64,000 nt of DNA. Origin: Mobula hypostoma. Taxonomy: Eukaryota. The notes beneath the pieces were generated by a model. It saw nothing but the letters and a program-made list of their open reading frames with translations, was not told where the DNA came from and ran no database searches. Shown one piece after another: positions 1 to 12,585 of the stretch. Position 1 is the first letter of the stretch. Every line of letters starts with the position of its first letter. The stretch is from the NCBI RefSeq assembly GCF_963921235.1, contig NC_086108.1, positions 17,360,001 through 17,424,000 of the forward strand. Reading direction: 5' to 3'. The position numbers and the translations under genes are program-made.

Positions 1-2588
1 ATTGTATCCGCCTCCACCATTGTTGCCAGCAGCCCATTCCACCACTCTTTGCGTAAAAAACTTATCCCTGACATCTCCTCTGTACCTTCTTCCAAGCACC
101 TTAAAACTGTGCCCTCTCATGCTAGCCATTTCACTTTTGAGAAAAAGCCACTGGCTGTCCACACGTTCAATGCCTCTCATCATCTTATACACCTCTATCA
201 GGTCACCTCTCATCCTCTGCTGCTCCAGGTGAAAAGGCCAAGTTCACTCAATTTATTCTCATAAGGCATGCTCCCCAAACCAGACAACATCCTTGTAAAT
301 CTCCTCTGCACCCTTTCTATGGTTTCCACATCCTTCCTGTAGTGAGGTGACCAGAACTGGGCACAGAACTCCAAATGGGATCTGACCAGGGCCCTATATA
401 ACTGTAACATTACCTCTCTGCTCTTAAACTCAATCCCACGATTGACGAAGGCCAATGTACTGCATGCCTTCCTAACCAGACAGTCAACCTGCACAGCAGC
501 TTTGAGTGTTCTATGGACTCGGACCCCAAGATCACTCTGATCCTCCACACTGCCAAGAGTCTTATCATTAATACTATATTCTACCATCATATTTGACCTA
601 CCAAAATGAACCACCTCACACTTATCCAGGTTGAACTCCATCTGCCACTTCTCAGCCCAGTTTTGCTTCCTACCAATGTCTCGCTGTAACCTCTGAAAGC
701 CCTCCACACTATCCACAACACCCCCAACCATTGTGTCATCAGAAAATTTACTAACCCATCCCTCCAATTCCTCATCCAGGTCATTTATAAAAATCATGAA
801 GAACAGGTGTCCCAGAAGAGATCCCTGAGGCACACCACTGGTCACTGACCTCCATGCAGAATATGATCCATCTACAACTACTCTTTGCCTTCTGTGAACA
901 GGCCAGTTCTGGATCCACAAAGCGAGGTCCCCTTGGATCCCATGCCTCCTTATTTTCTCAATAAGCCTGGCATGGGGTACCTTATCAAATGCCTTGCTGA
1001 AATCCATATAAACTACATTTACTGCTCGACCTTCATCAATGTGTTTTGTCACATCCTCAAAAAATTCAATCAGACTCGTAAGGCACAATCTGCCTTTGAC
1101 AAAGCCATGCTGACTGTTCTTAATCATATTATGGCTCTCAAAATGTTCGTTAAGTCCTAGCTCTCAGGATCTTTCCATCAACTTACCAACCACTGAAGTA
1201 AGGCTCACTGGTCTATAATTTCTTGGGCTATCTCTACTCCCTTTCTTGAATAAGGGAACAACATCGGCAACCCTCCAATCTTCTGGAACTTCTCTCATCC
1301 CCATTGATGATGCAAAGATCATTGCCAGAGGTTCAGCAATCTTCTCCCTCACCTCCCACATTAGCCTGTGGTACATCTCGTCCAGTCCCGGAGACTTATC
1401 CAACTTGATGCTTTCCAAAAGCTCTAGCACATCTTTCTTAATGTCAAAATGCTCAAGCTTTTCAATCCATTGGAAGTCATCCCTACAATTTCCAAGATCC
1501 TTTTCCACAGTGAATACTGAAGCAAAGTATTCATTATGTACCTCTGCTATCTCCTCCAGTTCCATACACACTTTTCCACTGTCACACTTGTTTGGTCCTA
1601 TTCTCTCACATGTTATCCTCTTGCTTTTCACATGCTTGTAGAATGCTTTGGGGTTTTCTTTAATTCTGCTCGCCAAGGCCTTCTCATGGCTCCTAATTTC
1701 ATTCTTAATCTCCTTCCTGCTAGCCATATAATCTTCTATATCTCTATCACTACTTTGTTTTTGAACTTTTTGTAGCTTTTCTTTTCTTCTTGACTATATT
1801 TTCAACAGCCTTTGTACACCACGGTTCCTGTATCCTACCATCCTTTCTTTGTCTCATTGGAACGTACCTATGCAGAACACCACGCAAATATCCCATGAAC
1901 ATTTGCCACATTTCTGCCGTACATTTCCCCTGAGAACATCCATTCCCAATTTATGCTTCCAAGTTCCTGCCTGGTAGCTTCTTATTTCCCCCTACTCCAA
2001 TTAAACACTTTCCTAACTTGTCTGTTCCTATCTCTCTCCAATGCTATTGTAAAGGAGATAGAATTGTGATCACTATCTCCAAAAGGCTTTCCCACTGAGA
2101 GACCTGACACCTGACAAGATTCATTTCCCAATACCAGATCAAGTGCAGCCTCTCCTCTTGTAGGCTTTACTACATATTGTGTCAGGAAACCTTCCTGAAC
2201 ACACCTAACAAACTCCACCCCATCTAAACCCCTTGCTCTCGGGAAATGCCAATGAATATTTGGGAAATTAAAATCTCCCACCACGACAACCCTGTTGTTA
2301 TTACACCTTTCCAGAATCTGTCTCCCTATCTGCTCCTCGATGTCCCTGTTACTATTTGATAGTCTATATAAGTACCCAGTAGAGTTATTGACCCCTTCCT
2401 GTTTTTAACTTCCACCCACAGAGACTCAGTAGACAATCCCTCCATGAATTCCTCCTTTTCTGCAGCCTTAACACTATCTCTGATCAATGGTGCCATGCCC
2501 CCACCTCTTTTGCATCCCTCCCTGTCCTTTCTGAAACATCTAAAGCCTGGCACTCAAAGTAACCATTCCTGCCCCTGAGCCACCCAAG
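1..2588 (-). mobile_element. CR1 LINE ORF2 (endonuclease + RT), frameshifted; 5' side abuts the minisatellite; 3' end runs off the window
   Basis: ORFs 1982-2284 (VGDFNFPNI...LDLVL...GDSDHN), 1164-1727 (NYRPVSLTSVVGK) and 210-1127 (QHGF, YMDFSKAFDKVPH, SGVPQGS, SKFSDDT) are typical CR1 EN/RT motifs. Confidence 0.95.
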
Positions 2589-5500
2589 TGTGTAGAGTAG
2601 GGTTGTCAGGAACAGAGCTTTGAGTAGGTGATTGAGGAACATAGTGTAGAGTAGGGGGGTGAGGAACAGAGTGTAGAGAAGGGGGAGTGAAGAACAGAGC
2701 GTAGAGTAGAGGGAGGGATGATGAACAGGGCGTATTGGAGGGGGGGGTGAAGAACACTGTGTAGATTACGGGGCTGAGGAACAGGGCATAGTGGAAGGTG
2801 TTTTGGAACAGGGCCTTCAGTAGGGGGTTCAGGCACAGGGTGCAGAGCAGGGGGATAAGGAACAGGGAGCAGAGTAGGGGTGTAAGGAACAGGGCGTAGA
2901 GTTGGGGATTGAGGGAAAGGGCATAGAGTTGGTGATGAGGAACTAGGTATAAAGTAGGGGATGAGGAACAGGACATAGATTAGTGGAGTGAGGAACATGG
3001 TGTAGCGTAGGGGGGTGAGGATCAGAGCATAGAGTAGGGGGAGGGATGAGGAACAGGACGTAGGGTAGGGGGTGATGAACAGGGTGTAGTGGAGGGTGTT
3101 TTGGAACAGAGCCTTCAGTAGGGGGTTGAGGCATAGGGTATAGAGTAGGGGGTTGAGGAACAGGACGTGGAGTAGAGGGGATGATGAACAGGGCGTACAG
3201 GAGAGGGGTGAGGAACACTGTATAGAGTACGGGGCTGAGGAACAAGATGTAGAGTAGTGGTGTGAGAAACAGGGTGCAGCGATGAACAGGGTGTAAAGTA
3301 GGGGGTGAGGAACAGGCAGCAGAGTGAGAAACAGGGTGTAGAGTAGGGGAGTGAGTAACAAGACATAGTGTAGAAGGGTGAGGAACATGGTGTAGAGTAG
3401 GGGCATGAGGAACAGGGCGCATAGTAGTGGGGTGAGAAACAGGGTGTAGAGTAAGGTGTGAGAAACAGGCTGTAGAGAAAGGAGATGAGGAAGAGGTAGG
3501 AGTTGAGGAACAAGGCCCAGAGTAGGGAGGTGAGGAAAAGTGAAGATTAGGGGATTGAAGAACAGGGATACAGTAGGGGGGTGAGGAACAGTGCGAAGAG
3601 TAGAGGGGTGAGGAACATGGTGAAGAGTATGGGTGTGAAGAACAGTGGGTAGAGTAGGGAGGTGAGGAGTATGGTGTAGAGTGGGGGGGTGAGGAACATG
3701 GTCTAGAGTAGGGGTGTGAGGAAGGACATAGAATGGGGGGTGAGCAACAGGGTGTAGAGTAGAGGGGTGAGGAACAGGGTTAGAGTAAGGGTGTGAAGAA
3801 CACAGAATAACGGGGTGAGGAGCAGGTTGTAGAATAGCAGGGTGAGGAACGGGGTGTAGAGTAGGAGGTGAGGATCAGGGTGTAGAGTACGGGGTGAAGA
3901 AGAGGGTGTAGAGTAGAGGGGTGAGGACAAGGTGTAGAGTAGAGGGGTGAGGAACATAGTGTGGAGTAGGGGCACAAAGAACAGAGCGTAGAGTGGGGGT
4001 GAGGAACATAGTGTAGAGTAGAGGGATAAGGAACAGGGTGCAGAAGAAGGGGGTAAGCAACAGGGTGTAGATTGGAGGGGAGGGCTGAGGATCAGGGTGT
4101 AGAGTAGGGGCATGAGGAACAGGGTGTACAGTAGGAGTTGAGGAACAGAGCCTAGAGTAGGGGAGCTGATGAACAGGGTTAGAGTAGTGGGTTGAGGAAC
4201 AGGGTTAGAGTAGGTGAGTGAGGAACAGAATGTAGAGAAGGCTGTGAGGAACAGGGTTTAGAATAGGGGGTGAGGAACAGCGTGTAGAGTAGAGGGGTGA
4301 GGAACATGGTGTAGAGTTGGGGTGTGAAGAACAGAATGCAGAGTAGGGCGGTGAGGAACAGTGTGTAGAGTAGGAAGGTGAGGAACAGGTAACAGAGTGG
4401 TGCAGTGATAAAGAAGGCGTAGTGTTGCATGTGAGGAACTAGGTGTAGAGTAGAGGGGTGAGAAACAGGGTGTACAGTAGGGCGGTGAGGAACATAGAGC
4501 AGGGGGTGAGGAACATGCAGAGAGTGAGGAACAGGGTGTAGAATAGGGGATGTGGAACAGGCATAAAATTGAGCGGTGAGGATCATGGTGTAGTGTAGGG
4601 GGGTGAGGAACAGAGTGTAGATTAGGGGGTTGAGGAACAGGGTGTAGAGTAAGGGAGGAACAGGGTGTAGCGATGGCAGTTGAGGAACACAGAGTGGAGT
4701 AGTGCGGTGAGGAACGGTGTAGAGTGGGAGAGCGAGGAAGGGGATGTAGAGTAAGGCATAAGGAACAGGGTCTAGTGTAGTGCTGTGAGAAACAGGCAGC
4801 AGAGTAGGAGATGAGGAACTGTTGTCAGAGTAGGGGTGTGAGGAACAGGGTTAGAGTAGGGGTTGAGAAACATGGCGTACAGTAGAGGGGTAAGGAACAG
4901 GGTGTAGCGTAAGGTTGTGAAGAACGGTGTTGGGTACGGGAGTGAGGAACAGGCAGTAGTGTAAAGAACAGTTTGAAGATTGTAGAGTAGAGGGTGAGGA
5001 ACAGGCGGTATAGTAGAGGGATGAGAAACAATGCGTAGAGTAGAGGGGTGAGGAACATGGTGTCGAGTAGTGGGGTGAGGAACAGGTTGTAGAGTAAGGG
5101 GGTGAGGAACAGATTGTAGAGTAGGGGAGTGAGAAACGGTGTAGAGTAGAGGGGTGAGGAACAGGTTGTAGAGTAGGGGAGTGAGGAACAGGGTGTAGAG
5201 TAAGGGAGTGAGGAACAGGTTGTAGAGTAAGGGGGTGAGGAACAGGGCCTAGAGTAGGGTGTGAGGAACAGGATTAGAGTAGGGGGTTGAGGAACAGGGT
5301 TAGGGTAGGGGTGTGAAGAACAAAGAGTTGGGAGTGAGGAGTAGGGTGTAGAGTAGGGTGTGATGAACAGGGGTAGAATAGGGCGTGAAGAACAGGGTGT
5401 AGATTAGGGGATGAGGATCAGCCAATGGAGTAGAGCGGTGAGGAATAGGGTGTAGAGTAGGGAGTGAGAAACAGGTTGTGGAGTAAGGGGGTGAGGAACA

Positions 5501-8262
5501 GGGTGCAGATTGGGGGGGTAAGGAACAGGGTTAGAGTAGGGGGTGAGTGTAGAGTAGAGGGGTGACGAACAGGGTGTTGAGTAGAAGGGAACAGGATGTA
5601 GAGTAAGGGGGCAAAGAACAGGGTGTAGAGTAGTGGGTGAGGAATGGGGTGTAGAGTTGGGGGGTGAAGACCAGGCAGTAGAGTGAAGAACAAGTTGTAG
5701 GGTAGGGGTGTGAGGAACAGAATGTAGAGTAGGAGGTGAGGAACAGGCAGTAGAGTAGAAGGGTGAGAAACAAGGAGTCGAGTAGAGGGGCGTGGAACAG
5801 GGTTTTGGAGTAGGGAGGTGAGGAACGCAATAGAGTAGCAGGGTGAGGAACTGTGTAGAGCAGGTGGTGAGGGCAGGGTGTGGAGTAGAGGGGTAAGAAA
5901 CAGTGAGGAGAGTAGGGGGTGAGGAACAGGGCGCAGAGTTGGATTGTGAGGAGCAGGGCATAGAGTTGAATTGTGAGGAAAGGGTGTAGAGTAGGGGTGT
6001 GAGGAATAGGGTGTAGAGTAGTGGGGTGAGGAACAGGGTGTAGAGTAAAGGGTGAGGAACAGGTTCTAGAGTAATGGATTAAGGAGCAGGGTGTTGAGTA
6101 GGGAGGTGAGGAACAGAGTGCAGAGCAAAGGGGTGAGCAACAGGGTGTAGAGTAGAGGTAAGGGCTGAGGAACAGGGTGCAGAGAAGGGGCGTGAGGAAC
6201 AGAGTGTAGAGTATAGGGGTGAGGAACAGAGTGTAGGGTAGGGGGTAAAGGAACAGAGCCTAGAGTTGGGGGGGGTGAGCAACAGGGTTAGAGTAGGGGG
6301 TTGAGGAACAGGGTTAGGGTAGGGGGTTGAGGAACACGATTAGAGTAGGGGCAGTGAGGAACAGAGTAGGTGATGAGGAACAGGGCGTGGAATAGAAGGG
6401 TGAGAAGCAAAGAGTAGAGTAGGGGTGTGAGGAACAGGGCGTAGCGAAGGAGGCTGAGGAACAGGGCGTAGCGAAGGAGGCTGAGGAACATGGTGTAGAG
6501 TAGGGGATGAGAAACAGGCATAAGAGTAGGGTGTGAGGATCAGGGTGTAGAGTAAAGGGTGAGGAACAGCACGTAGACTAGGGGGGTGAGAAACAGGGTG
6601 TAGAGTATGGGGTGAGGAACAGGGTTAGAGTAGGGGTGTGAAGAACAGAGAGTGGGGGGTGAGGAGCAGGGTGTAGAGTAAAGGGTGAGGAACAGCACGT
6701 AGACTAGGGGGGTGAGAAACAGGGTGTAGAGTATGGGGTGAGGAACAGGGTTAGAGTAGGGGTGTGAAGAACAGAGAGTAGGGGGGTGAGGAGCAGGGTA
6801 TAGAGTAAAGGGTGAGGAACAGCACGTAGACTAGGGGGGTGAGAAACAGGGTGTAGAGTATGGGGTGAGGAACAGGGTTAGAGTAGGGGTGTGAAGAACA
6901 GAGAGTAGGCGGGTGAGGAGCAGAGTGTAGAGAAGGGGGGTGAGGAACAGGCAGTGGAATAGAGCACTGAGGAACAGGGTGTAGATTAGGGAGTGAGAAA
7001 CAGGTGGTAGAGTAAGAGGATGAAGAACAGGTTGTAGAGTAGGGGTGTGAGGAACAGAGCGTAGTGTAGAGGGGTGAGGAACAGGGTGTAGAGATAGGGG
7101 GTGATGAACTGGGGATAGAGTAGAGGGTGAGGAACAAGCAATCGAGTGAGGAATGGCTGTAGAGTGGGAGGGCGAGGAACAGGAGATAGAGTAATGGGGT
7201 GAGGAACAGGGTGTAGAGTAGGGTTTGAGGAACAGGGCCTAAAGTGGGGGGGTGGTGGTGAGGAACAGAGCGCAGAGTTGGTTTGTGAGGAACAGGGCAT
7301 AGAGTAGAGGTGTGAGAAATGTTTGTAGAGTAGAAGGGTGAGGAACGGGATGTAGAATAGGGGATGAGGAACAGGGCGTAGAGTTGGAGGTGAGGAACAG
7401 TGTGTAGAGTAAGGGTGTGAGAAACTGGGTGTAGAGTAGTGGGGTGAGGAGCAGGCTTCATAGTAAGGGGTGAGGGACAGGCAGTTGAGTGAAATACAGG
7501 GTGTAGAGAAGGGGTGAGGAACATGGTGTAGAGTAGGGGGATGGGGAATAGAGTGTAGAGTAGTAGGGTGTGGACCAGGGTATAGGGTAGGGGAGTAAGG
7601 AATAGAGCCTAGAGTCGGTGGGTGAATAACAGGGTTAGAGTAGGGTTGAGGAACAGGGTTAGAGTAGGTGGGTGAGGAATGATGTGTAGAGTAAGTGGTT
7701 GAGGAACAGGATGTAGAGTAGGGGGCTGAGGAATGGTATAGTGCAGGGGGAGAGGAACTTTGTGTAGCATGTGTATGGTGGCAAGTGGGCAAGTGGTTAG
7801 GGCATTGAACTAGCGATCCAAAGGTTGTGGGTTCGAGCCTTGGTCGAGGTAGCGTGTGTGTCCTTGAGCAAGTCACTTAACCACACAATGCTCCAGTCTA
7901 CTAAGCTGAGAATGGGTACCGCCAAAAAATGCTGGGGGCTAACCTGGCGATAGACTGGTGTCCTATCTGGTGGGGGGGGGGGCGTGGTGGAGTCTTGTAC
8001 TCTCAGTTGCTTCACGCCACGGAAACAGGCATAACCTGATGGGCCACAAGGCTCGTGACTTTAATCTTTAATCTAAAATACGGTAGAGTAGGGGCGTGAT
8101 AAACAAGACGTAGATAAGTGGGGTGAGGAACAGGGTGTAGAATGGGGGAAGGAACAGGGCATAGAGTAGAGGGGTAACAGGGTGTCAGGAATAGGGCATC
8201 GAGTAGAGTTTGAGAAACAGGTTGTAGAGCAGGGGGTTGAGAAACAGGATGTAGAGTATGGT
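2589..8262. repeat. G/A-rich minisatellite, ~27-bp unit (consensus ~GTGAGGAACAGGGTGTAGAGTAGGGGG), interrupted by a SINE
   Basis: About two hundred diverged tandem units; strong purine bias on the + strand; an isolated unit-and-a-half also at ~9518-9557. Confidence 0.97.
7775..8074 (+). mobile_element. tRNA-derived SINE inserted in the minisatellite
   Basis: A-box-like TGGGCAAGTGG, B-box GGTTCGAGCC, then GTGTCCTTGAGCAAGTCACTTAACC body and a (TTTAATC)n tail. Confidence 0.8.
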
Positions 8263-8728
8263 GTTAAGGACAACCAGGCAGAGGTGCTGATGCCTATTTT
8301 TGCTGATTGCCATCTGGTGATCATAAATTCAAGGGTCCAGTTGCAAATTAAGGCATGGAGTTTCAGGTCTAGATGTTTGCAGATGAGTTATCTTGAAATT
8401 ATATTATTGAAGGCAGAGCTGTACTCAAGAAATAGCCGAATGTAGGTGTTTTTACTGTTCAGATGCTCTTGAGATGATTGTAGGGCCAGGGAGATGGTGT
8501 CTGCTGTAGATTAGTTTCAGCAGTAGGCAAATTACAGTGGGTTGAGATGAACTAGAAAACTGGAAGTGATGCGTGCTGTGACCACTCTCCTGAAGCATTT
8601 CATGATGGTGGATGTCAGAGTCACTGTTCAATTGTTATTAAGCCACATTACCTTGTTTTCCTTTGGCACTGGGCTTTTAGTGGTTTTCCTAAAGTGGTTG
8701 GGAACCTCAGATTGAAGCAGTGAGAGCA
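8263..8728 (-). mobile_element. Rex1/Babar-type LINE RT fragment (degenerate)
   Basis: Manual minus-strand translation: LSLLQSEVP...PVPKENKV...LTSTIMKCF...FAY...STADTISLAL...YSSAFN...ICNWTLEFMITRWQSAKIG, matching the Rex1 RT N-terminal half. Confidence 0.85.
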
Positions 8729-8904
8729 AGCGTACATTTCCATATGGAGTCACTACCTGTCAGTCTAAAAATAAGTGATTGAAGTTAACTGTAACATCCT
8801 CGAGAATGGTTCAGTGCACACTTTGCATGAATAGATTATTGATGAATCTTCCTCACACGGTTGGAACGTGTGCAATTAGCTGACATACAGATTGAAGTGG
8901 ACAT

Positions 8905-9205
8905 TGAGTCATGGAAACAGGCCCTTCAGTCCAACTGGTCTATGCTGATGAAGATTCCCAGCTAAGGCATATTCCATTTGCCTGCTTTTGACCTATATAT
9001 CTCTAAACATTTTCTTTTCATATACTTGGCTCAGTGCCTTTTAAATGCTGTTTATGTACCTACCACAACCACTTCCTCAGGCAGCACCTCTGGGTGAAAA
9101 GATTTCTCCTTGGGTTCCTATTAAATCTTTCTCCTCACACCTTACATCTAAGCCCTCAAGTTCTTGATTCTCTGACCCAAAATGCCTACTTGCATTGACC
9201 CACAT
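8905..9205 (-). mobile_element. Old CR1 3'-end fragment
   Basis: ACAGGCCCTTCAGTCC tail motif and decayed ORF2 C-terminus resembling other CR1 3' ends in the window. Confidence 0.6.
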
Positions 9206-10389
9206 TGAGTTTATACACTGTTTATATGCGCTGTTTCAGTGTGTTGGGTGCAGATTTGCATCCAGGAGCACAGTCTCCCAAAGTGAATATTTTTCCCTTC
9301 CTTAATCTAGGAAGGCAGTCAATTGTTTCAACCTTTTTTTGCTGGACAGTTCGAGACCATTACCTCCCTCAAACCTCTTCCACTATTTAATTGGCTCATG
9401 GCTGATTTAAACTTCTCCTATTGTTCCATAACCTCTAATGAACTCATCAACCTGAAGTGCCAGTTTTAAGATTTTAACTACACATCTATTTGCTGTAACC
9501 ATAGATGTTTTATTTTCAGGAACAGGGCGTAGAATAGGGGGTGAGGAACAAGGTGTAACAGATTCTGTCTCAGAATCTCATTAACCCCATCCTACACCAG
9601 ACCCTTCTCTCTGACTGATCCCCACCTTTTCCTTTCTGTGACTGACTTTCACCCAAGCCACTGTCTGCTCTCCCTGAGATCAGACCCTCACAGGTAATAA
9701 GCTCAGTTCTCCCCTGGCCCTGTGATTGGGCCCATGATCTCTCCCAATGAACTGTCTGTTCTCTGCAGCCCAGGGTAGTCAGCCTTTTTGACCTGGTGGG
9801 AAATCAACAGAAAATAATTAATTCAGTCTGGGAAATCTGTACTTCTGGATTCCATAGGCTTTAAACAGCTCCTTCCTTGAACTTCTTATCAAATTAATAT
9901 CAAACTCCATGGCCTGTAAATTCCTCCAATTTTGATAGAACAGTGCTGTACAATTGGAAGTAGAGTTAGCCCGAAGGCAAGCTATACTGCATCTGTAATA
10001 TATCTGTGACCACTCACATAAGAAACATGCTCTCTGCATAATCTTACTAATCCCTGAGCACTCACCCACTTCCTTCTCTTCATTGCAGCATCTATTTCTT
10101 TTAAAGCATCAACACTCTCCAGCAGCTACACAAGTGCTGCTGACGTTCTGGAATACTCTTTTTAGGTTGAGGTTGGAGCCACAAGGTGAAGTGCCAGCAG
10201 TGATAAAAAGTTGCAATAAATAACTTGTGCTGAAACTGATGAGGCACAGTGTTATACAGAGATATATTACCTTACAATTGAAGAATACAATCTTTATGAG
10301 ACTTCTAAAAGCAGTGTTAGTGTGACACATAGCACTGTTTAAGCGGTGCTTAAATGCTCTGAAGCAGTCTCGAGGTAAGTGGCTCTTAC

Positions 10390-11224
10390 CTGTGGCTTGG
10401 ACGAGGAGTTCTGCTGCTTTATTTTGCTGTGTGTTTTTGACTGGGATGTGGCCAGGTAGGTAAAGGTTTGCCCCAAAGTCTATGAGTAGCTGAATATACT
10501 GAGGTCCACAGCCATATCTGAGACACATCTCCAGGACTGTCTTTGGCTGCTTGATCCTTGCCAAAACTCTCTGCTCTGTACAATTGTAGTTGGGATCTGC
10601 ACCATAGAGAAGAAGCAGCCTAAAACAGTCAAAGTGCCTGTACACTGATGCAAGGTAGAGAGGGCCACTACAGGCACAAGCATTGGAAGCCCATTTGGGC
10701 ACCTTGGAACGAACGTTGACTTCAGCTCCATGCTCCAGCAGGGCCCGCAAGATCTCTGCATCCCCTTCCCTGGCTGCAGTGAGTACAGGTGAGCAGTTGT
10801 TGTAGATGCTTCCATTAGGATTGGCCCCAGCCCTGAGTAGAGCATGAACACAATACAAGTGCCTGCCGCTGACAGCGGTGAAAAGAGGGGTCTGGGCCTT
10901 AACATCTAAACTGTCCACCTCTGCGCCATGCCTCAGGAGCACTTCCAGGCAACTTAGGTGGCCCTTCGAGGCTGCCAGACGGAGAGGAGTCCCCGGTACA
11001 CCCCAGCCACTCCGATTATTGATAAACCGTCTGTAATGCTCCTGGGACAAAAGCTCATCCAAAAGGGCTACATCATTTCTTAAGACAGCTTGGTTGATTT
11101 GATTGATTTCAGTGTTGTCATCCTGGTTTCTGGGTTGCAGCATGGAGAAGATCTTGCTGATGTCCACCAGACTCATCCTCACTGGGGGCATGATCTCCAC
11201 TTTCAGCATGGTGCTGGCTTCCAT
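10390..11224 (-). CDS. ASB12: Ankyrin repeat and SOCS box protein 12(-like), main ankyrin exon; ends at a phase-1 splice donor; SOCS-box exon not located in the window
   Basis: MSLVDISKIFSMLQP...FINNRSGWGVPGTPLRLAASKGHLSCL...SLDVKAQTPLFTAVS...GSIYNNCSPVLTAAR...CSGPLYLA...YIQLLIDFGANLYLP matches vertebrate ASB12; donor ACAG|GTAAGA at 10390/10389 where similarity stops; start could be the downstream Met (MSLVDI). Confidence 0.9.
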
Positions 11225-11399
11225 ATCAGGCTTCTGGGATCACACAGAGGCATTACTGGTTGCCTGTTTTCCTTGCAGGCTTGGTTGACACTGATGGTGA
11301 TGCAACACAGTGCTGATTGTGATGTCAGGCAGGCAGAGTGCTGCATTGTCCCTCCTTATCTGTCAGCTAATACACTATGGGGAAAATTGTTTCATCCAT

Positions 11400-12585
11400 G
11401 TGGATGCTCCGGGCAAAACAGCACACCAATGTCTCTACTTCATCAGAAGGCTAAGGAAATTTGGCGTGCTCCCAATGATGGGTAAGACAAGGGAACACAC
11501 ACCAGTCCTCACCGAAAGATCAGAAGTGGAATGGGTGAGCAGTTTCAAGTTCCTGGATGTCAACATCTCTGAGGATCTGTCCTGGGCCCAACATATCGAT
11601 GAAGCTACAAAGAAAGCATGACAGTGGCTATATTTCATTCGAAGTTTGAGTAGATTTGGTATGTCACCACAGACACTTGCAAATTACTTTCACATATGGC
11701 CATGGAGGCCACTGGTTGCATCACTGGCTGGTATGAGGGGGATGAGGAAGAGTGTTGCTCAGGATCTAAATAAGCTGCAGAAAGTTGTAAACTCTCAGCT
11801 CGATCATGGACACTCGCCTCTTTGACATCCAGGACATAATCAAGGAATGAATGCCTCATAAAGGAGGCCTCCATCATTAAGGACCCCCATGATCCAGGAC
11901 ATGCCCTCTTCTCATTGCTACCATCAGGAAGGAGATACAGGAGCTTCTTCCTCTCTGCAATCAGATTTCTGAATGCACATTGAACACTCTCACAACTTTT
12001 TTGGCACTATTTAATTAAATATATACATACTTACTGCAATTTACAGTTTTTATTATTATGTATTGCAATGTACTGCTGCCACATAACAAATTTCACAACA
12101 TGTGCTGGTGATATTAAACCTAATTCTGATTCTGATGACTGTACAATTTGTACAGATGCACCCTATCCAGATGTATTACAACTTGGTGTTGTAGCTGCTC
12201 TTCCCAAGACCGCAAGAACTTGTAGAGAGTTGTGAACACAGCCCAGTCCATCACACTCCTCTCCATTGACTCCATCTACACATATGGGAAAGCAGCAAGG
12301 ACCTTTCCTGTCCTGGTAATTCTCTCTTCTCTCCTCTTTCATCAGGTAGAAGCTTGAAAGCACAAACCCGAGTGGACCTCTCATTTGATCTCCCAGTCTA
12401 CCTTATTGTGGTCCTTACACTTTATTTGTCTACCTGCACCGCTCTTCCTTTGTAACTGAAAGACTGTATTCTGCATTCTGTATTGATTTTTATTAATTGA
12501 TGTACCTGTGTATGGAATGATCTACCTGAATAGCATGCAAACAAAAGCTTTTCATTGTTATCTTGATACATGTGACAATTTTAAC
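11400..12585 (+). mobile_element. Two nested Rex1-type LINE 3' fragments (inner ~11479-12135 with (ATTCTG)n tail)
   Basis: LYFIRRLRKFG; VSSFKFLDVNISEDLSWAQHID...KKA; 3'UTR ending ATTAAACCTAATTCTGATTCTGAT; outer copy resumes after 12136. Confidence 0.75.

Follow-up and report, generated by a model that had tools for sequence, protein, structure and literature searches.

A 27-nt minisatellite in Mobula hypostoma that probably arose in place from the reverse transcriptase motif of an adjoining Rex1-type LINE copy

The locus described here lies in a 64,000-nt stretch of the Mobula hypostoma genome (NCBI RefSeq assembly GCF_963921235.1, contig NC_086108.1, positions 17,360,001 to 17,424,000 of the forward strand), hereafter the window, by whose numbering all positions are given. 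The following features are relevant:

1..2589, minus strand: 5'-truncated LINE, presumably CR1, sharing 85-88% identity with its sister copies elsewhere in the window; runs off the window edge
2589..7771, minus strand: main minisatellite array of a 27-nt unit, about 197 monomers; its inner edge at about 7771 was placed by eye
6537..6917, minus strand: higher-order repeat within the array, consisting of three copies, 97-99% identical, of a 127-bp block of five monomers
about 7772..8083, plus strand: SINE-like insertion that splits the array, on inspection presumably a tRNA-SINE; boundaries approximate
8084..8268, minus strand: first seven array monomers, the first of which opens with the reverse transcriptase (RT) L-N-T codons in monomer register
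8260..8725, minus strand: decayed Rex1-type RT fragment, truncated at both ends, with five stops and one frameshift near the junction, ending in LNT
8910..9170, minus strand: high-copy LINE 3'-end fragment, presumably CR1, between the remnant and the RT fragment
9520..9557, minus strand: isolated remnant of about 1.7 monomers, located when the window outside the array was searched with a profile
10390..11224, minus strand: intact ankyrin-repeat exon, ending at a GT donor near 10390

Because the array lies downstream of an ankyrin exon that ends in a GT donor, it is probably located in the intron that follows this exon. The host gene, presumably ASB-like, should have its last exon beyond the left edge of the window, and the ankyrin exon offers a good anchor for finding orthologues. 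On the left side, the LINE at 1..2589 forms the limit of the visible array, whose far flank it conceals. An Rfam search of 7600-9800 returned a single chance-level match and none relevant to the SINE-like insert. No intact Rex1 motif was found elsewhere in the window by motif scan or tblastn, nor was the 3' half of the array's LINE copy found within it. Decayed Rex1-type 3' pieces of other copies are present at 11397-12276 on the plus strand, upstream of the ankyrin exon; as candidates for the missing 3' half of the parent they were rejected, since they lie on the opposite strand and on the other side of the array.

The tandem array occupies 2589-8270 on the minus strand and comprises approximately 204 monomers. 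Tandem Repeats Finder (TRF) reported a period of 27 at 2590-7733, and wrap-around decomposition of the minus strand (over 8270-8072 plus 7735-2588) yielded 207 segments between 8268 and about 2589, all but three of which (204) are at least 18 nt long. The modal segment length is 27 nt (101 of 207), followed in the count by 26 nt (56 of 207), so the 26-letter unit quoted in the first-pass annotation has to be replaced by one of 27 nt. A 23-letter pattern of the unit matches 83 times, compared with no match in 100 shuffles, and the monomer consensus translates as LTPLLYTLF. The same annotation described an array of 5.7 kb: the repeat and its period of 27 are real, but it is discontinuous, being interrupted by the SINE-like insert at about 7772-8083, after subtraction of which the monomer sequence totals approximately 5.37 kb. 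On the plus strand, 2589-8270 is strongly skewed in composition (G 45%, C 7%) and contains 271 runs of at least three G and 26 quadruplex-like motifs; such a G-rich skew and such motifs could promote instability of the array.

Individual monomers differ from their consensus by 14.9% (substitutions). Pairwise identity between monomers is flat (0.69-0.71 at every lag tested), and blocks of 20 monomers show no gradient of divergence with distance from the junction (0.80-0.85), which together suggest that the array may stem from a single old burst, after which the monomers decayed independently. No higher-order structure was detected across the array apart from the 127-bp triplication at 6537-6917, which is the sole young event in an otherwise old array. 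An extra 27-nt monomer found behind 8230 in one of the sequencing runs compared below (X5), together with this triplication, indicates that local turnover continues. Among the contigs listed, pieces of paralogous Rex1 copies resemble the RT fragment at about 78-85%, and the apparent ages of the array and the fragment are compatible with expansion soon after insertion. A coding role for the array was considered and ruled out by the many 26-nt units, by other frame-breaking indels and by the near-even mismatch at the three codon positions (0.15, 0.12 and 0.17). None of 3,038 candidate predicted proteins was built of the repeat at E 0.01, although this counts as weak evidence. Most likely, the array has no function and is simply decaying.

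The sequence adjoining the array reads on the minus strand, over 8274-8723, as a single frame with five stops (translation ...ICNWTLEFMITRWQSAKIGISTS). Its best match among fish RT proteins has an E value of 7e-35 at 49% identity (22 of 381 candidates matched), and a wider protein comparison retrieved 2,932 representatives at E 0.001, whereas Pfam applied to the fragment alone gave nothing at E 0.01. One homologue of 933 residues, P0006, carries Exo_endo_phos and RVT_1 domains and is 45% identical to the fragment region, compared with 22-31% over the RT to the CR1-type copies of the window. As judged by these comparisons, the fragment is part of an AP-endonuclease LINE RT distinct from CR1. 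Its more specific label, Rex1, is our assumption, based on its motifs, and no named Rex1 reference was returned among the database matches. The published Rex1 primer RTX1-F1 (PMC3728117) has its best match in the fragment at the homologous SSAFN site, at 13 of 21 letters, a value no better than the background in other loci. According to the published accounts, Rex1 coverage is highest in rays (PMC13343379), and Rex1/Babar LINEs have a conserved 3' UTR and an oligonucleotide tail (PMC6274825). The first-pass annotation had the fragment reading into VVLNT; the RT is indeed present, but VVLNT lies one frameshift off the upstream frame, which itself reads SAWLSLTPY.

In homologues of the fragment, the relevant segments follow in the order LNT-GAPQGCV-LSPLLYSLF-THDC, and derivation of the 27-nt unit from this Rex1-type RT motif appears well supported by sequence similarity. 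The least biased comparison is one in which RT homologues were found from the upstream fragment alone and the unit was then compared in all frames and all phases. The best match of the unit in the 933 residues of P0006 is LSPLLYSLF at residue 682 (score 38). Two of 1,000 shuffles attained this score at some place in P0006, whereas none of 3,000 did so within 30 residues of the junction. The sequence PQGCx is present in 83 of 172 fetched proteins, and the nine residues that follow it are identical to the unit at six or more of nine positions in 64 of these 83 (eight in 2 proteins, seven in 23, six in 39, and five or fewer in 19). The original proposal had equated the unit with the segment VLSPLLYSL. 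Its origin from the RT motif is upheld, but the register lies one codon later, as LSPLLYSLF/Y fits better in six of six loci.

At the DNA level, the unit matches the motif at 20-23 of 27 positions in all six fish-type loci used, compared with 16-18 elsewhere in those loci and with shuffle maxima of 20-21 in 200 shuffles, although these identities are inflated, as the loci had been picked with a unit-like pattern. An unrelated contig (L002) and a near twin of L001 (L006) were left out of this comparison. In one locus, L004, the match of 20/27 only equals the locus's own shuffle maximum, and the unrelated contig L002 matches monomers at 22/23, so a C-rich unit of this kind can match by chance. 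It might accordingly be asked whether a C-rich minisatellite of unrelated origin simply came to lie beside a Rex1 fragment, a view to which the low complexity of the unit, the unrelated contig at 22/23 and the two shuffles that score as high somewhere in the ORF all lend something. However, strand, frame and position all agree, and no shuffle scores as high close to the junction; such a coincidence is very improbable.

The RT fragment abuts the first monomer at 8268 on the same strand and ends 30 nt, i.e., ten codons, before the motif matched by the unit. The ten codons GAPQGCVLSP of homologues are absent at the junction, and after the frameshift the LNT codons run straight into the third-to-fourth codons of the monomer, which means that 30 nt (or 30+27k) are missing. 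Since the LNT codons sit in monomer register and resemble the monomer start (7/9 letters in loci L007 and L008), the junction lies in microhomology. Contigs of four organisms (runs X1, X5, X9 and X10) were compared over 8060-9700; those spanning the junction differ from the window by 0, 7, 11 and 20 letters, respectively, where the zero belongs to a run, X1, that may be the source sample. The letter at 8262 differs from the window and is common to X5, X9 and X10, in which it changes the Thr codon to Ala. The ancestral junction codon was thus probably Ala rather than Thr, in which case fewer letters speak for the LNT reading.

None of the four organisms retains the linker codons, so the seed is not contiguous with the array. 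The first-pass annotation had regarded the seed as still attached; this is likely, and the fragment does adjoin the array on the same strand, but not only is the 30-nt linker missing in 4/4, monomers also occur upstream of the LINE piece. Because the array and the deletion are common to X1, X5, X9 and X10, both are older than these lineages. Indeed, monomers are already present at the junction in all three other organisms, and no unexpanded orthologue was found among these three. The orthologous contig of X10 fits only from 8150 up, and its first 252 letters match nothing in the compared stretch 8060-9700; this organism may be without the SINE or may have a different array start.

The isolated remnant at 9520-9557 stands out clearly from its surroundings (E 1.4e-7, with the next best match in the window at E 2.3), and its ungapped score of 36.6 exceeds the shuffle maxima of 18-28 (10 shuffles). 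It is identical to the array at 4247-4286 in 36 of 40 letters, lies approximately 800 bp upstream of the RT fragment and 1.25 kb upstream of the junction, and is covered by orthologous contigs in 4/4 organisms. As it contains tandem junctions, it derives from the array and not from a lone LINE, and with the remnant upstream and the array downstream, monomers flank the LINE piece on both sides. If the array was born in place, the remnant demands an extra event.

The presence of monomers on both sides brings in the opposite order of events, in which a Rex1 motif at another place or an earlier time gave rise to the array, which then extended as far as about 9557, and the Rex1 piece was joined to it by homology, either through ectopic recombination or through internally primed reverse transcription that started at an array nick. 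The truncation of the fragment at both ends, its fusion in monomer register at microhomology and the occurrence of the remnant in all four organisms would be in keeping with such a course, and it stays a candidate because the 3' half of the LINE would lie beyond the CR1-type LINE, outside the window. However, approximately 400 bp of the interval that separates the remnant from the RT fragment are single-copy in depth and contain no further monomer remnants, which favours old intron DNA with a small templated copy over later insertions into an older array. Moreover, the pairing should have taken place at the longer homology of 27 nt, in which case the linker codons would have been retained. On balance, a capture of the LINE piece by a pre-existing array seems unlikely. 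A special form of it, in which the LINE homed onto its own offspring, is improbable: Rex1 RNA would have been reverse-transcribed from an array nick that paired with its internal motif. There too the array would have come first, and, with similarly low probability, the doubly truncated RT piece would have been left fused in register. If this were true, minisatellites born from transposable elements would be sequence-specific landing pads for the parent family.

The array might also be one copy of a dispersed minisatellite family derived from Rex1, which was born a single time at another site and whose copies, each with its Rex1 flank, were spread through segmental duplication or transduction. 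The depth of sequence bears on this. Monomer-like bins have about 1-3 times the single-copy depth in X1, X5 and X10, compared with some 300 times for the RT fragment (a rough measure), and X5 shows no excess at the remnant. In X9, however, one monomer bin reaches about 20 times the single-copy depth and six contigs occur at 8144, so that further arrays in this organism are possible; the isolated remnant, too, shows that pieces can move. Among the matches listed, there is one junction-spanning contig per run, and all four X1 between-joint strings listed at monomer places trace to the array at 6952-7105 (by eye; one was checked). Depth and joint strings fit one or few loci, among the matches listed. 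A metagenome scan for the unit yielded eight loci, namely seven Rex1-type RT sequences and the unrelated L002, and the array was present in none of them; neither Rex1 nor the unit was found in viral contigs or in prokaryote genomes. Taken together, spread from a founder elsewhere is quite improbable.

The unit matches the LSPLLYSLF codons and abuts a broken Rex1-type copy, and thus the array likely arose in place. A birth in place followed by a microhomology deletion is, in our judgement, the probable history of the locus. Six steps would connect the features that can be seen directly (the identity of the unit, its adjacency to the LINE piece, the shared strand, the missing 30 nt and a junction common to four organisms). 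First, a Rex1 copy would have inserted into the intron. Second, nine of its codons would have been duplicated, with two Ser-to-Thr changes in the founder unit that were passed to most copies. Third, one early burst of slippage or unequal exchange may have raised the number to at least 200 copies, which decayed independently afterwards. Fourth, 30 (or 30+27k) nt would have been deleted between the LNT codons and the monomer start that resembles them. Fifth, a copy of 1.7 monomers would have been placed 1.25 kb upstream, probably serving as templated filler in break repair. Finally, the SINE and the CR1 would have inserted later.

It is rare that the initial step in the birth of a minisatellite can be seen. 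In the present case, the unit can be assigned to specific codons within a conserved RT motif, the probable parent adjoins the array, and orthologues are available in four organisms, so that the array can be used to study how tandem DNA originates, undergoes a single expansion and then decays. Its importance would be greater if the capture of the LINE piece were true or if 26-27 bp were a preferred birth length in this lineage. Judged by its sequence, the array may be counted among tandem repeats derived from transposable elements, in that it is a head-to-tail array with a unit homologous to a mobile element beyond chance. Comparable cases are known. In the human genome, the survey of Ahmed and Liang (2012, PMC3389668) reports 7,276 tandem repeats from mobile elements (23% of those surveyed), most of the cases having two units, and arrays were kept at an identity of at least 95%. 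As in those minisatellites, the unit described here corresponds to a small part of a mobile element that was expanded by local duplication; unlike them, the array has an RT coding motif as its source and consists of approximately 200 units, which are about 70% identical in pairwise comparison. SINE-derived satellites have been described in a study of 56 reptile genomes (Vassetzky et al. 2023, PMC10702118), and in squamates they likewise consist of part of a retroposon amplified head to tail in a few to hundreds of units. However, the squamate units are 70-290 nt long, derive from non-coding SINE sequence and occur at many loci, whereas the array has a 27-nt unit from LINE coding sequence and was seen at one locus.

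Closer in their source are satellites related to LINE ORF2, such as chicken HinfI (CR1), hamster PROsat (L1 ORF2), seal Pvc20 and the cetacean common satellite (PMC9659126, PMC6947457). These share with the array a homology to LINE coding or 3' sequence but differ from it in that their monomers are longer and either contain the LINE sequence within them or resemble it in part. PMC9659126 contains no occurrence of Rex, and its passages on these satellites describe no attached parent copy; a literature search that left most subscription journals outside its range found no Rex1-RT-derived array. The model of Haber and Louis, as cited in PMC6947457 and PMC3389668, has duplication by slippage or unequal crossing-over followed by expansion, an order that it shares with the proposal made here. 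However, it wants flanking direct repeats of 5-10 bp, and no repeat of more than 3 nt at period 27 was found in seven fish Rex1 loci, among which the parent's own sequence is not included; a 4-nt repeat at period 28 is present in two of the seven. The principle that mobile elements give rise to tandem repeats has already been published for Alu, L1, CR1 and reptile SINEs, and the array beside this Rex1-type fragment leaves that principle unchanged.
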